From an uncultured Planctomycetaceae bacterium (GTDB taxonomy: Bacteria; Planctomycetota; Planctomycetia; Planctomycetales; Planctomycetaceae), in NCBI GenBank assembly GCA_963815195.1, contig CAWFGE010000012.1:512001-576000 (forward strand): a DNA stretch of 64,000 bases. Direction: 5' to 3'. The notes below the pieces were generated by a model. The model searched no databases, was not told the DNA's origin, and was given only the letters and a program-made list of their open reading frames with translations. Shown here piece after piece: positions 61,209 through 63,946 of the stretch. The first letter of the stretch is position 1; every line of letters starts with the position of its first letter. A program made the position numbers and the translations under genes.

Positions 61209-61279
61209 ACGCCTCTAGTGTAATGGCAGCATGACTGGCTCCAACCCAGTTGGTCAGGGTTCAAATCCTTGGGGGCGTG
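61209..61279 (+). tRNA. tRNA-Trp(CCA)
   Basis: ACTGG-CTCCAAC-CCAGT; full cloverleaf. Confidence 0.9.
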
Positions 61280-61307
61280 CTGGCGAACGAACCTTCGCTC
61301 GCCAAAT

Positions 61308-61378
61308 GGGCTCATCGTCCAACAGGAAGATGCCGGTGTCGCAAGCCGGAGATCCCGGTGCAATTCCGGGTGGGTCCA
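61308..61378 (+). tRNA. tRNA-Ala(CGC)
   Basis: CCGGT-GTCGCAA-GCCGG; G3.U70. Confidence 0.85.
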
Positions 61379-61389
61379 CTCCTCAATAC

Positions 61390-61462
61390 AGTCCTGTGGC
61401 CTAGCGGCGAAGGCAGCTCCCTTACAAGGAGACGAGCGGGGGTTCGAGTCCCTCCAGGACTA
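61390..61462 (+). tRNA. tRNA-Val(TAC)
   Basis: CTCC-CTTACAA-GGAG. Confidence 0.88.
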
Positions 61463-61470
61463 CTCACCAC

Positions 61471-61544
61471 GCCCAGATACCCCAACCGGCAGAGCGACTC
61501 GGCTTAAAACCGAGTGTTTGCAGGTTCGATTCCTGCTCTGGGTC
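61471..61544 (+). tRNA. tRNA-Leu(TAA), short variable loop
   Basis: CTCGG-CTTAAAA-CCGAG. Confidence 0.8.
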
Positions 61545-61558
61545 GTGAAGACAAACTC

Positions 61559-61632
61559 GGCTCGGTAGGCAAATGGCAGACCACCTTGGCTTAGAACTAG
61601 GGATGCTGTGGGTTCGAGTCCCACCTGAGCCA
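61559..61632 (+). tRNA. tRNA-Leu(TAG), short variable loop
   Basis: CTTGG-CTTAGAA-CTAGG. Confidence 0.85.
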
Positions 61633-61645
61633 CTCAAACAAATAC

Positions 61646-61718
61646 GCCCTCGTGGAGCAGCGGAGTGCTCGCCTGCCTGTCACGCAGGAGATCGTCGGTT
61701 CAAATCCGATCGGGGGTG
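61646..61718 (+). tRNA. tRNA-Asp(GTC)
   Basis: CCTGC-CTGTCAC-GCAGG; G73. Confidence 0.9.
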
Positions 61719-61725
61719 CTGAAAT

Positions 61726-61802
61726 GGCACGGTACGCAAATGGAAAAGCGGCGAAGCTCAAACCTTCGTGATTGTCTGTGGGTTCGACTCCCTCCCGTGC
61801 TA
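61726..61802 (+). tRNA. tRNA-Leu(CAA), reduced variable arm
   Basis: CGAAG-CTCAAAC-CTTCG. Confidence 0.85.
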
Positions 61803-61815
61803 CTCAAATGATGAT

Positions 61816-61896
61816 GCGTCGGCTGGGCATTGGCGAGCCCAAGTGGCTGTAACCCACCCGCCTATCGCTGTGGCGGTTCGACTCCGTCCCGACGCA
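61816..61896 (+). tRNA. tRNA-Tyr(GTA)
   Basis: GTGG-CTGTAAC-CCAC; variable arm present. Confidence 0.85.
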
Positions 61897-61904
61897 CTCA
61901 AAAA

Positions 61905-61977
61905 GGCCCGTTCGTCTATCGGTTAAGGACACCAGCCTCTCACGCTGGAAAGATGGGTTCGATTCCCGTACGGGTCA
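61905..61977 (+). tRNA. tRNA-Glu(CTC)
   Basis: CCAGC-CTCTCAC-GCTGG. Confidence 0.9.
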
Positions 61978-61984
61978 CTGACTT

Positions 61985-62054
61985 TGCAGGTGCGGCAGGT
62001 GCCCAATCGGCTTTCATAAGGCCGGTGTGCTCGGCTCGATACCGGGACCTGCAA
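61985..62054 (+). tRNA. atypical tRNA(CAT) with minimal D-arm and extended anticodon stem
   Basis: TGCAGGT/ACCTGCA acceptor; ATCGGCT-TTCATAA-GGCCGGT; T-loop CTCGATA. Confidence 0.65.
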
Positions 62055-62069
62055 CTTATCCAACATTGA

Positions 62070-62138
62070 CGCGGGTGAGCCAGTGCTCATTCAGGCCTCA
62101 TAAGCCAGAACAGCCGGGTGCGACTCCCGGACCCGCTA
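62070..62138 (+). tRNA. atypical tRNA(CAT) with 4-nt D-loop, extended anticodon stem and CAG variable loop
   Basis: GCGGGT/ACCCGC; GAGC-CAGT-GCTC; TTCAGGC-CTCATAA-GCCAGAA; CCGGG-TGCGACT-CCCGG. Confidence 0.65.
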
Positions 62139-62146
62139 CTTGTCCA

Positions 62147-62221
62147 GGCCGGGTACGCAAACCGGAAAAGCGGGCAGGTCGAGAACGTGCGATTCTGTGG
62201 GTTCGACTCCCACTCTGGTCA
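62147..62221 (+). tRNA. tRNA-Leu(GAG), degenerate (C33, G.G stem mismatch)
   Basis: GCAGG-TCGAGAA-CGTGC; D-arm similar to Leu(CAA). Confidence 0.7.
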
Positions 62222-62228
62222 CTCGAAT

Positions 62229-62301
62229 GATCCCGTGGTCCAGTGGCGAAGACGCCTGGATGACACCCAGGAGATCGGTAGTTCGATTCTACCCGGGATC
62301 A
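62229..62301 (+). tRNA. tRNA-Val(GAC)
   Basis: CCTGG-ATGACAC-CCAGG. Confidence 0.88.
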
Positions 62302-62313
62302 CTTGCGACAACT

Positions 62314-62384
62314 GGTCTGTAGGTGTTGTGGCCGCACGCCGCTGTGGTAAGGCGGAAGACCGGGTTCAATCCCCGGACGGACCT
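62314..62384 (+). tRNA. tRNA-Thr(GGT)
   Basis: CCGCT-GTGGTAA-GGCGG. Confidence 0.8.
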
Positions 62385-62394
62385 CTCGACAAAT

Positions 62395-62485
62395 GGGCCT
62401 GCATGCCGATGGAGGCGACTGATCCTTGCAAGATCGGTGGACCACCCCAAGGGGCGGTGCCCCGGTTCAACTCCGATCAGGTCCA
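62395..62485 (+). tRNA. tRNA-Ala(TGC) with hairpin insertion in the variable region
   Basis: TGATC-CTTGCAA-GATCG; G3.U70; extra GGACCACCCCAAGGGGCGGTGCC. Confidence 0.7.
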
Positions 62486-62496
62486 CTGAAGGAAAC

Positions 62497-62567
62497 GGGC
62501 TGATGGTCCAAGGGGAAGACACCGCCCTGGCGTGGCGGAAATCCGAGTTCGACTCTCGGTCAGTCCA
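62497..62567 (+). tRNA. tRNA-Ala(GGC)
   Basis: CCGCC-CTGGCGT-GGCGG; G3.U70. Confidence 0.85.
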
Positions 62568-62576
62568 CTCACATAC

Positions 62577-62664
62577 GGAAGGTAACCGAATTGGCTTAGG
62601 AAACTGGGTGCTAACCAGTCGCCCTGGAACTGGGGTTGGATGGGTTCGATTCCCCCACCTTCCG
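62577..62664 (+). tRNA. tRNA-Ser(GCT), degenerate
   Basis: GGAAGGT/ACCTTCC-G; ACTGG-GTGCTAA-CCAGT; long variable arm. Confidence 0.7.
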
Positions 62665-62669
62665 CTTAT

Positions 62670-62741
62670 GGCTCGATGGTGAAACGGACATCATGTCTCG
62701 CTTCTAACGAGATGTTCCAGGTTCAAATCCTGGTCGAGCTA
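62670..62741 (+). tRNA. tRNA-Arg(TCT)
   Basis: TCTCG-CTTCTAA-CGAGA. Confidence 0.9.
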
Positions 62742-62775
62742 TTCCACATCACTGTGGAGGAAAAACTATCAACAT

Positions 62776-62849
62776 GGTGTCCGTGGTGTATGCGGTAGGC
62801 ACGCCTGCCTGTGAAGCAGGAAGTGAGGGTTCAACTCCCTTCGGTCACC
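62776..62849 (+). tRNA. tRNA-His(GTG)
   Basis: CCTGC-CTGTGAA-GCAGG; G-1:C73. Confidence 0.88.
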
Positions 62850-62864
62850 CTTCGACAACGTCAT

Positions 62865-62938
62865 GCCGACGTGGCTCGACTAAGAAAGGCGCCGCTCTTG
62901 TAAAGCGGCTTATGCTGGTGCAAATCCAGTCGTCGGCT
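62865..62938 (+). tRNA. tRNA-Thr(TGT)
   Basis: CCGCT-CTTGTAA-AGCGG. Confidence 0.85.
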
Positions 62939-63023
62939 CTTTTTGGTTTTGGTGGCTGAAATGTCGATTCACCATTATTCGCTTACGCGGCGCTGAGCTA
63001 TGTTCTGTCATGTGATTGAAAAA

Positions 63024-63095
63024 GTCCCGATGGTGTAACGGACAACACGAGACTTTCCTAAAGTTTCGATCCTGGTTCGATTCCAGGTCGGGATA
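63024..63095 (+). tRNA. tRNA-Arg(CCT)
   Basis: AGACT-TTCCTAA-AGTTT. Confidence 0.88.
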
Positions 63096-63106
63096 CTCAA
63101 CAACTG

Positions 63107-63177
63107 GCCTTGCGAGTGTGAGGGACGCACGGCGGTCTTCGGAACCGCAAGACGGGGTTCGACTCCCTGGCGAGGTG
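63107..63177 (+). tRNA. tRNA-Arg(TCG)
   Basis: GCGGT-CTTCGGA-ACCGC. Confidence 0.85.
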
Positions 63178-63265
63178 CTTGCAGAAGCGGAGAGCCAAGG
63201 GCGGAGAGCACAGAGCCAAACCGATTATATACCAAGCGTTCCGGCTCTCAACTCTCCGCTGTTTT

Positions 63266-63338
63266 GTCCTTGGAGTGTGCCGGATTCGCACGCGAGCCCG
63301 CGAAGCTCGCAGACCAGGTTCAATTCCTGGCGAGGACA
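63266..63338 (+). tRNA. tRNA-Arg(GCG), C33
   Basis: CGAGC-CCGCGAA-GCTCG. Confidence 0.8.
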
Positions 63339-63349
63339 TTTTCGATATG

Positions 63350-63421
63350 GACGCTGGAGCCGGATGGTGAGGCGGCTGCCTGCAAAGCAGCCAGAAGTGG
63401 GTTCGATTCCCACCGGCGTCT
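63350..63421 (+). tRNA. tRNA-Cys(GCA)
   Basis: GCTGC-CTGCAAA-GCAGC; U73. Confidence 0.9.
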
Positions 63422-63423
63422 CT

Positions 63424-63496
63424 GACCGACCAACTGCCGGTTCGGACTACATCCTGTAAAGAGGCGTGTCTGAACTTATTCCTTCGTTGGAAGGTC
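63424..63496 (+). ncRNA. Y-RNA-like scaffold unit 1 (short; Tyr-anticodon-like loop)
   Basis: GACC..CCAAC/GTTGG..GGTC outer stem; TGCCG; GTTCGGAC/GTCTGAAC inner stem; TACAT; CTGTAAA loop. Confidence 0.6.
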
Positions 63497-63505
63497 GCGA
63501 TAAAA

Positions 63506-63679
63506 GCCCAACTGCCGGCTGGGAGTCCATGACGGTCCTAAGGTAGCGATGCCGGGCGACCGGCTAGTGAATGGCGCTCGAGTCTCTCCGAGATGAAGGG
63601 GCCAGTCAACAGTCAGCGATTGACTTCGCTGATACGGACGGCCGAAGCGAAAGCATCTCTTGGCCACCCTTCGTTGGGT
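63506..63679 (+). ncRNA. Y-RNA-like scaffold unit 2 carrying a 23S rRNA H69-H71-like insert
   Basis: GCCCAAC/GTTGGGT outer stem; GGCTGGGAG/CTCTTGGCC inner stem; ACGGTCCTAAGGTAGCGA...GAATGGCG insert. Confidence 0.65.
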
Positions 63680-63690
63680 CACAACAAAAC

Positions 63691-63800
63691 GGCGACTGCC
63701 AGTTCGGAATACATCGGCTGTCCAGTGAGTCTGGCGATCGCTTTGCGATTGGCGGGTTCGATTCCCGTACGGAATTGTTTCTGACCACAACTTCGTCGCC
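63691..63800 (+). ncRNA. Y-RNA-like scaffold unit 3 with a T-arm-containing insert
   Basis: GGCGAC/GTCGCC outer stem; GTTCGGAATA/TGTTTCTGAC; GCGGG-TTCGATT-CCCGT. Confidence 0.6.
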
Positions 63801-63810
63801 ACCAAAAAAC

Positions 63811-63946
63811 GACCGACTGCCGAATTGGAGTCCATGGCTCATAACCCGGGAGTGTGGGTTCGAATCCCACCGGCGCCACTTGAAACCGAGCGCCGTAGCT
63901 TAATGGCAGAGCACCGTAAGTCTCTGGTTCAACCACCTCGTCGGTC
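63811..63946 (+). ncRNA. YrlA-like Y RNA (unit 4) with circularly permuted tRNA(CAU) domain
   Basis: GACCGAC/GTCGGTC outer stem; GCCGAA; T-arm precedes a loop-closed acceptor stem and the D-arm. Confidence 0.75.

Follow-up and report, generated by a model that had tools for sequence, protein, structure and literature searches.

What is a piece of 23S rRNA doing inside a small non-coding RNA that lies outside any rRNA operon? The question is raised by a 64,000-nucleotide (nt) stretch of DNA from an uncultured Planctomycetaceae bacterium (NCBI GenBank assembly GCA_963815195.1, contig CAWFGE010000012.1, positions 512,001 to 576,000 of the forward strand), which is called the window below. Near its 3′ end, just upstream of the gene rsr, stands a small RNA gene, unit 2 (63507–63678, plus strand), in which a scaffold of the Y RNA type encloses a module that resembles the ribosome. 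Two things had to be decided: whether unit 2 is a displaced rRNA fragment or an RNA in its own right and, if the latter, what its ribosome-like module could be for. As set out below, unit 2 is a member of a conserved RNA family that extends across several phyla and phages, and it is very probably a functional Y RNA that mimics an rRNA junction. Helices of the 23S region go by their usual numbers, and papers given by PMC number are cited for the accessible part of their text.

The resemblance was first pointed out in a sequence-only reading of the window, which described an 18-mer matching 23S rRNA, an H71-like hairpin with a compensatory change, a further short 23S match behind the hairpin, and a displaced H69 5′ strand at the end of the insert. 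Alignment to domain IV of the host 23S rRNA bears out all four and extends the first, in that the identity in fact covers 21 nt (63529–63549), while the match behind the hairpin comprises 9 identical nt (63568–63576), with the helices in the same cyclic order in both RNAs. The 18-mer, ACGGTCCTAAGGTAGCGA (63532–63549), has two exact copies in the 8.87-Mb genome, one in unit 2 and the other in the 23S gene (C8:134923–134940, minus strand), and its reversed control pattern has no match. When the whole Y RNA array was compared with the rRNA operon region by blastn-short, the 21-mer had by far the lowest E value (4e-6); the next match (18 nt, 94%, opposite strand of the operon region) reached 0.06 and all others at least 1. 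The match at 0.06 was set aside, and unit 2 was treated as the sole clearly rRNA-like unit. The Rfam large-subunit model (RF02541) gives no match on unit 2 at E ≤ 10, while it scores the true 23S segment at 504 bits. Unit 2 is not an ordinary rRNA fragment. Its parts are the following.

63507–63678, plus strand: unit 2, the whole rRNA-mimic Y RNA with scaffold and module (193 bits with the covariance model R1, see below).
63507–63512, plus strand: 5′ strand of helix P1, CCCAAC, pairing with GUUGGG at 63673–63678 and followed by a conserved UGCC; compensatory changes at 5 of 7 pairs.
63517–63525, plus strand: 5′ strand of helix P2, GGCUGGGAG, pairing with CUCUUGGCC at 63657–63665; compensatory changes at 6 of 9 pairs.
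63529–63650, plus strand: the module, the same interval as in the sequence-only reading.
63529–63549, plus strand: 21-nt identity to the host 23S rRNA, ATGACGGTCCTAAGGTAGCGA, by pairwise comparison and blastn-short.
63551–63564, plus strand: H71-like hairpin GCCGG-GCGA-CCGGC with a GNRA cap, where the host has GTCGG-GTAAGTT-CCGAC.
63568–63576, plus strand: 9-nt identity to the host 23S rRNA, TGAATGGCG (as RNA, UGAAUGGCG).
63573–63575 (GGC) and 63577–63578 (CU) against 63601–63603 (GCC) and 63598–63599 (GG), plus strand: closing helix, from the consensus fold.
63582–63594, plus strand: capping hairpin GUCU(C)-UCC-(G)AGAU, sealing the natural ends of the 23S junction.
63605–63639, plus strand: stub in the position of H68, with GUC at 63605–63607 paired to GAC at 63637–63639.
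63640–63644, plus strand: H69 5′ strand GGCCG at the 3′ end of the module, pairing with CGGUC at 63533–63537.
63645–63656, plus strand: small GAAA-capped hairpin in the linker, preceded by AA after GGCCG.

In the host 23S rRNA the corresponding region, taken from the Rfam structure line, is a multiloop closed by a four-pair helix (cgCc...gGcg), from which a long H68, H69 and H70/71 branch off; H70/71 comes after the strand CUAAGGUAGCGA, and a strand uGCACGAAu makes the return to gGcg. The module of unit 2 can be read in the same circle. From the GGCG side of the closing helix it passes through the cap to the GCC side, a single A, the stub in the place of H68 and the H69 5′ strand; then, across the scaffold, through the H69 3′ strand, the junction strand CCUAAGGUAGCGA, the H71 stem with its GNRA cap and UAGUGAAU, which includes UGAAU, to GGCG again. 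In the fold common to 20 relatives, the branches of the 23S multiloop recur in the same cyclic order. Because the parts and their cyclic order are the same, the module amounts to a circular permutation of the whole four-way junction, beyond H69–H71, and, judged from its sequence, it reproduces, permuted and on a small scale, the four-way junction at the centre of 23S domain IV. Entry and exit of the RNA chain lie in the H69 loop and not at the closing helix, which occupies the place of the gGcg/cgCc helix in 23S and is probably H67-like. The sequence-only reading had described H69–H71 as permuted and opened at the H69 loop. The permutation and, for unit 2, the point of opening stand; the mimic is larger than had been supposed, including the whole junction, its closing helix and the H68-position stub, and many relatives keep the loop intact.

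Compared nucleotide by nucleotide, the 21-mer covers the 3′ part of the H69 loop, the H69 3′ strand CGGUC (63533–63537) and the junction strand CCUAAGGUAGCGA. The H69 stem has the host sequence, and the H71-like stem is one compensatory pair apart from host H71. Around the H69 5′ strand, ACGGACGGCCGAA in the mimic and ACGGCGGCCGTAA in the host are identical at 12 of 13 positions, with one inserted base and one change. Besides these likenesses there are clear differences. The junction takes about 145 nt plus the long H68 in 23S rRNA and about 110 nt in the module; of H68 only a stub is left, a GNRA tetraloop stands in for the H71 loop, the open H69 loop runs on into the Y stem, and the H70 internal loop with its UUCCU is deleted (GCGATGCCGGG in the mimic against GCGAAGTTCCTTGTCGGG in the host). 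The mimic tracks the 23S rRNA of its host only partially. Planctomycete mimics carry the G of CUAUGACGG, as do all 16 Planctomycete 23S sequences examined, whereas the mimics of other phyla have A (CUAUAACGG). The 23S rRNA of genome G017 (L148) has a swapped H69 base pair, GGCCCUAACUAUGAGGGUCC, that sets it apart from the other 15, and the mimic of that genome does not follow the swap.

The structure of unit 2 was derived by comparison. Twenty relatives of the loop-opened form were aligned, and RNAalifold gave a consensus of eight helices. The H69-like helix, whose strands lie about 100 nt apart, is kept in 20 of 20 relatives with all cells (100%) paired and compensatory changes at 2 of 5 pairs; one of these pairs is CG in 17 relatives and GC in 3, another UG in 12, UA in 6, GU in 1 and CG in 1. 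Covariation runs through the helices of the fold. In the H68 stub the GUC/GAC helix shows no variation among the 20 relatives, and the hairpin inside it (63612–63619 with 63626–63633) is variable, with compensatory changes at 7 of 7 pairs. Altogether 27 of 45 pairs are changed on both sides, against 11.7 in shuffles, and 95.6% of cells are paired, against 86.7% in shuffles and 28–48% in slid registers; none of 500 shuffles reached the observed values, a comparison to be read with the caveat that kin sequences can beat every shuffle without any structure. For the H71-like hairpin, the count could be taken over a wider set: it is perfect with a GNRA loop in 54 of 63 distinct members, and 35 distinct stems occur among the 58 that have a perfect hairpin. 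It is for the loop-opened form alone that the junction model can be called firm; in loop-bearing forms the pairing of the H69 base and of the H68 position is less certain.

The sequence-only reading had suggested a search for the 23S-like sequence at non-rRNA loci flanked by the scaffold, and this search yields a family spread over several phyla and phages. A BLAST search with unit 2 in 41 related genomes, in which genuine homologues were distinguished from the 21-nt matches that fall on every 23S gene, gave true homologues in G003, G026 and G017 and a weak one in G021 (E 0.024), which was confirmed by the covariance model R1. This model was built solely from Planctomycete loop-opened members, which were derived from a pattern and all carry CCUAAGGUAGCGA. 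In the host family it has full-length matches of at least 56 bits in 17 of 151 genomes; weaker matches, of 29–40 bits, are adjoining Y units, of which it recognises the scaffold only. The pattern GNCCTAAGGTAGCGAB gave at least 120 loci in species genomes, with record titles for 80 of the 120. Among the 120 loci listed, 41 are members by eye, one is a true 23S gene and 78 are chance matches, many of them coding-like in appearance. R1 matches 40 of the 41 by-eye members at the pattern site and none of the other loci listed, so that L142 is a member by eye only. The titled loci come from Planctomycetota, Cyanobacteria (Microseira wollei, Oscillatoriales), Myxococcota (Kofleriaceae, Labilithrix, Enhygromyxa, Polyangiaceae, Myxococcales), a metagenome-assembled genome (MAG) of Verrucomicrobiales and a MAG labelled Bifidobacteriaceae. 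The stricter pattern GGNCCTAAGGTAGCGAB was found in 4 of 401 genomes of the phylum, a count worthless by itself because the reversed control pattern gave 6 matches; all four loci are members by sequence. The distribution is patchy at both levels, that is, 4 of 401 phylum genomes by pattern and 17 of 151 family genomes by model.

The family occurs in two forms. In the first, to which unit 2 belongs, the H69 loop is opened; in the second the H69 hairpin loop is intact, with the 23S loop sequence CGUAACUAUAACGG (as CGUAACUAU[AG]ACGG), and the RNA is opened elsewhere in H69. Of 18 strong R1 matches in the host family, 10 and 8 are of the two forms, respectively, and one cyanobacterial member of the second form has a swapped stem pair, CCUAACUAUAGG. 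Unit 2 has every feature by which the family is defined, namely the H69-like stem, CCUAAGGUAGCGA, the GNRA-capped H71-like hairpin, the closing helix and the H68-position stub. Several members depart from the common outline. In five (L126, L129, L131, L159, L161) the loop of the capping hairpin (GUCU...AGAC), from which in 23S the remainder of domain IV would extend, is enlarged by insertions of about 20–110 nt; in L170 about 110 nt are inserted elsewhere, after the H71-like hairpin; and L177 (G554:C498:21-200) is a second mimic copy in one genome, with the junction strand CCAAAGG and a broken H71-like stem, which may be decaying.

On viral contigs the pattern has 28 loci, of which R1 matches 9 and 3 more, AT-rich, are related by eye. 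tRNA genes surround the viral members, whose scaffold, CGAAUGC...UACA, is of the kind usual in YrlA-type stems. Open reading frames (ORFs) of the size of Rsr (545–569 amino acids) and TROVE-like in sequence were found in 3 of 5 viral records tested: the one on a 512-kb record with terminal repeats scores 25.6 bits against the Pfam cut-off of 23, and the others 17.9 and 16.0, below it. The two records in which none was found are estimated to be 20–31% complete. Four further viral loci (L192, L193, L204, L206) have a 23S-like 20-mer, UAUAACGGUCCUAAGGUAGCGA, in an AT-rich context with neither the scaffold nor the H71-like hairpin; they are non-members, and their 20-mer may be a homing-endonuclease target.

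That unit 2 is a Y RNA is indicated by its scaffold and its surroundings. Its two ends form a stem interrupted by an internal loop, and the same scaffold recurs in at least seven units, four inside the window and three past its end. The motifs common to them are [CG][AG]ACUGCC, the helix and U[AC]CAU on the 5′ side and CUUCGU[CU]G on the 3′ side. The units stand between an array of 22 tRNA genes, the last of which is a tRNA-Cys gene, directly on their 5′ side, and rsr, a gene of 557 codons on the same strand whose start lies 1,112 nt past the 3′ end of unit 2 and whose product contains TROVE (1.8e-11) and vWA_Ro60 (1.7e-13) domains. This is the known layout of bacterial Y RNA genes upstream of rsr; in the account of Chen et al. 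2014 (PMC4201824, accessible text), several Y RNAs per rsr locus are cut from one precursor, each being modular, with an Rsr-binding stem and a module. The neighbours of unit 2 in the window are these.

61209–63422, plus strand: tRNA gene array, 21 tRNAs by ARAGORN and one by Rfam alone (61308–61378).
63430–63490, plus strand: unit 1, short hairpin-type Y-RNA-like unit, with P1 CCAAC/GUUGG and P2 GUUCGGAC/GUCUGAAC.
63691–63800, plus strand: unit 3, Y-RNA-like, with a T-arm-like hairpin, GCGGGUUCGAUUCCCGU, in its module (from sequence).
63811–63946, plus strand: unit 4, YrlA-type tRNA-mimic Y RNA (Rfam YrlA 31.9 bits, E 2.7e-4).

The YrlA match of unit 4 is full-length but under the gathering score of 69, and its scaffold is the same as that of unit 2. 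Unit 2 itself has no YrlA (RF02553) or tRNA match at E ≤ 10 and no T, D or acceptor arms, and is therefore regarded as a Y RNA with a different type of module, not as a YrlA. The likeness to YrlA and the other bacterial Y RNAs lies in the position just upstream of rsr within a tandem set of small RNAs, in the paired ends, the stem with an internal loop and a conserved 5′ motif, if only in part the same one, in the occurrence in phages, and, for YrlA, in a module that is a permuted copy of an RNA of translation with its natural ends sealed. The difference is that the copied RNA is the 23S domain IV junction and not a tRNA, and that the 5′ motif reads CCCAACUG in unit 2 (GNCGACUG in its neighbours) in place of GNCGAAN0-1G. 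Units 3–7 have GNCGACUG or NNCGACUG here, and Myxococcota and phage members have CGAAUGC. The term rRNA-mimic Y RNA, used in the sequence-only reading, thus describes the element well, an rRNA-like module inside a Y-RNA-type scaffold.

Several smaller observations concern the array. Units of type 1 also lie 5′ of the mimic in many relatives, as seen in upstream flanks and in weak R1 matches beside the mimic, and units of type 3 lie directly 3′ of it in many Planctomycete loci; the module of unit 3 combines the T-arm-like hairpin with two other hairpins, without a full tRNA shape. Three gaps in the tRNA array are unfilled (62072–62134, 62939–63023, 63179–63264) and may hold odd tRNA-like RNAs; the first has an Rfam match to a viral tRNA-like element of 33.3 bits, below the cut-off of 40. 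The scaffold motif UACAU/UCCAU follows P2 in every unit (63526–63530 in unit 2 and the same place in units 1, 3 and 4), and UACAU is the recognition sequence of MazF-bs in a table of PMC5408214, as far as the accessible text goes, which may be a coincidence. Just past the window end, between units 4 and 5, lies an ORF of 125 codons (L002:4086-4463, window-equivalent 64085–64462), which is kept within the Y arrays of three relatives (81% identity in L008, 68% in L101, 58% in L086). It has no Pfam family and falls, in the protein atlas, into a Planctomycete-only cluster of hypothetical proteins; its product could be a protein partner of the Y array. A cysteinyl-tRNA synthetase gene (L002:9446-11176) lies about 3 kb downstream of rsr.

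The neighbourhood of rsr and tRNA genes is not peculiar to this genome. TROVE was found in 35 of the 151 genomes of the host family, namely in 16 of the 17 that have the mimic and in 19 of the 134 others (115 without), figures which describe an association and are no statistical test, since kinship makes the genomes non-independent. The TROVE gene shares its contig and strand with the mimic in 14 of the 17 mimic-positive genomes, where it follows about 1–3 kb downstream. Outside the host family, tblastn placed Rsr within a 2.5-kb flank at 15 of 27 loci; at L036 and L049 TROVE appears to lie about 3–4 kb downstream on the same contig and strand, the identity of the contig being judged there from its number and the nearby coordinates. 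tRNA genes adjoin the mimic nearly everywhere, including Myxococcota, Verrucomicrobia and phages. According to the accessible text of PMC8421152, long tRNA arrays are passed on horizontally, and translational stress induces them in Anabaena; no mention of Y RNA, Ro60, non-tRNA or tRNA-like elements was found in that text. The window has the mimic at one end of such an array, while in the three groups just named it lies within tRNA arrays; its own distribution, as noted, is patchy. RNA ligase genes (PF09414) adjoin the tRNA/Y RNA arrays of two relatives (L009:1797-2576, L070:1011-2090).

With the first question answered in this way, the second can be addressed. We propose that unit 2 is a Y RNA and a partner of Rsr that carries the permuted domain IV junction as its module, which on balance we think the probable explanation as a whole. 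Unit 2 would be transcribed with the array and then cut out; Rsr would bind the stem formed by P1, the internal loop and P2, leaving the module as the working end; and the module would fold as the ribosomal junction does, offering a surface on which a ligand of the H69/H71 face of the 50S subunit could dock or be titrated. Candidate ligands are HflX and RRF, which bind at H69/H71, or the 30S interface. The outcome would be either that Rsr with a nuclease partner is tethered to the ligand, or that the RNA competes with ribosomes for it, under translational stress. This tethering or competing is a conceivable mechanism that we put forward tentatively, with somewhat more doubt than belief. The H69 loop is present in only some members, whereas none has lost the H69 stem, the junction strands, the H71 stem or the closing helix; a ligand that the two forms share is therefore expected to recognise the junction and the H69/H71 cleft, not the loop. 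In the accessible text of PMC11040002, RRF acts at H69/h44, and bridges B2b and B2c use the H68 base and H67, while ribosomes and translation factors are raised as possible partners of Y RNAs by Chen et al. (PMC4201824, likewise in its accessible part).

A number of observations weigh against this proposal. Of the 8 positions of the published Rsr motif GNCGAAN0-1G, the 5′ motif of unit 2, CCCAACUG, fits only 5. The genome G017 has the mimic and is complete, yet no TROVE gene was found in it, nor in the genomes of L082, L051, L069, L074 and L103, although these last are MAGs and possibly incomplete; as some mimic genomes show no TROVE, the mimic RNA may also act without Rsr. Unit 2 and the other loop-opened forms have no intact H69 loop, which argues against ligands that require it (bridge B2a to h44, RluD, RlmH). 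With a z-score of only −1.85, the single-sequence minimum-free-energy fold misses both the P2 helix and the H69-like one, so that the structure rests on comparative evidence. The invariance of CCUAAGGUAGCGA among pattern matches is circular, being built into the search pattern; among the 18 R1 matches, for which no pattern is needed although the sequences behind the model all carry the strand, it is exact in 15 and differs by 1–2 bases in 3. As to expression, no RNA run holding unit 2 itself was found. Among the sequencing runs listed, one DNA run contains 0.61 of the query words and may be the source sample; the other 19 contain 0.22 or less and were not counted as evidence. Metatranscriptome contigs from 4 libraries of 4 studies are short and belong to relatives only; one of them, of 544 nt, covers relatives of tRNA-Cys, unit 1 and unit 2, and nothing covers 63636–63731, so that they show neither the ends nor the expression of unit 2 and are at most a hint, because such libraries can contain DNA.

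Other explanations must be weighed against the same evidence. It is not hard to imagine that a short exact identity to rRNA is a dead 23S fragment or an assembly chimera, and the sequence-only reading had itself named a chance or chimeric 18-mer, or pairings not kept in homologues, as what would speak against it. Yet the same reordering, trimming and capping recur in dozens of genomes from several phyla and in phages, with covariation of both the H69-like and the H71-like pairings, and the large-subunit model does not match unit 2. Unit 2 is no assembly artefact, because homologues occur in many independent genomes, and the family, the covariation and the R1 results together refute this explanation, whose probability we regard as negligible. 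A selection acting on DNA is scarcely more attractive. Here the 23S-identical stretch would be the target of an rRNA-intron homing endonuclease that moves the tRNA array; the I-CeuI site overlaps the stretch, and in loop-bearing members about 28 nt across the site are the same as in 23S. A homing endonuclease gene does adjoin the Anabaena array (PMC8421152, accessible text). But compensatory changes 100 nt apart and in the H71-like stem are the mark of selection on RNA structure, unit 2 keeps only part of the site, and no endonuclease gene was seen in the flanks, all of which makes the idea very improbable.

Two explanations grant that the RNA functions and dispute what its module does. The module could be a decoy or sponge that absorbs an agent attacking the junction, such as an RNase toxin, from a competitor, a phage or a defence system, that cuts H69–H71, or an H69-binding antibiotic, and so spares the ribosomes, with damaged copies perhaps passed to Rsr by the scaffold. 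The RNA lies in horizontally spread tRNA arrays and in large phages, which are typical settings of conflict (PMC8421152, accessible text); RNA ligase genes stand beside two arrays; an RNase that cuts H69 exists, shown in the accessible text of PMC13189344 on eukaryotic ribosomes only; and a near-invariant single strand of 13 nt would suit a sequence-specific nuclease. However, the only bacterial toxins documented here, MazF-mt6 and MazF-mt3, cut UUCCU in helix/loop 70 (PMC5408214, accessible text), and UUCCU is deleted in every member examined. A decoy of the MazF-mt6 type is rejected for this reason, and the decoy for H69/H70-cleaving toxins put forward in the sequence-only reading is speculation. 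Moreover, the H69 loop is opened in unit 2, none of the conserved neighbours of the arrays is a toxin or immunity gene, and the conservation of the junction strand needs no nuclease, since the strand is universally conserved in 23S for structural reasons. The decoy explanation seems unlikely. Alternatively, the RNA might be an Rsr-independent mimic of a substrate, which titrates a factor of rRNA modification or late 50S assembly at H68–H71, for example RluD, or reports on it, the Y stem serving only stability and processing. RluD and RlmH act on the H69 loop, and forms with an intact 23S H69 hairpin loop are common; Planctomycete mimics share the lineage-specific G of CUAUGACGG with Planctomycete 23S, and some mimic genomes have no detectable rsr. 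There is also a precedent in that enzymes of tRNA modify YrlA (PMC4201824, accessible text). Against it, about half of the members, including unit 2, have lost the loop and yet remain under purifying selection, the coupling to rsr is strong, and the G017 mimic does not follow the swapped H69 pair of its own 23S. This makes such a factor mimic quite improbable to us. The reading of unit 2 as a Y RNA and Rsr partner with a junction module is the one retained below.

To our knowledge, bacterial Y RNAs have been described only as tRNA mimics or plain hairpins, and what is new here is a Y RNA that carries a ribosomal module. The sequence-only reading knew of no described equivalent, and none came to light in Rfam or in the searchable literature. 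Rfam 15, run over the window, unit 2, 20 bacterial and 10 viral loci, gave only tRNAs, one tmRNA and weak YrlA matches on other units, with none over the mimic. A Y RNA with a 23S-junction module is not described in the literature within reach of the search, outside of which lay subscription journals and bioRxiv supplements, and the accessible text of a recent phage Ro60 paper (PMC12135203) has hairpin-type Y RNAs only. Leaders of ribosomal-protein operons mimic rRNA and, like unit 2, reproduce an rRNA site in a small RNA away from the ribosome; they differ in that the rRNA site is another one, and that unit 2 has no downstream ribosomal-protein gene and is set on a Y scaffold beside rsr.

The existence of a second, unrelated type of module means that the modules of Y RNAs are interchangeable look-alikes of the RNAs of translation. 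It also names the H69/H71 face of the 50S subunit as a concrete surface with testable ligands, and it offers structural biologists a natural, self-folding minimal domain IV junction. The presence of the mimic in mobile tRNA arrays and in phages as large as 512 kb ties Ro60 biology to ribosome-directed conflict or stress. A bolder reading, which we hold to be doubtful for the present, is that Ro60-bound RNAs in bacteria and large phages display a folded replica of the central bridge surface of the 50S subunit (closing helix/H67, H68 base, H69 and H71), which docks on the 30S interface or on splitting and recycling factors (HflX, RRF). If so, the replica would recruit Rsr and its exonuclease to free subunits, or would reprogram how subunits join and are recycled in stress or infection; and, together with the tRNA-like Y RNAs, the rsr locus would be a kit of look-alikes of the translation machinery.

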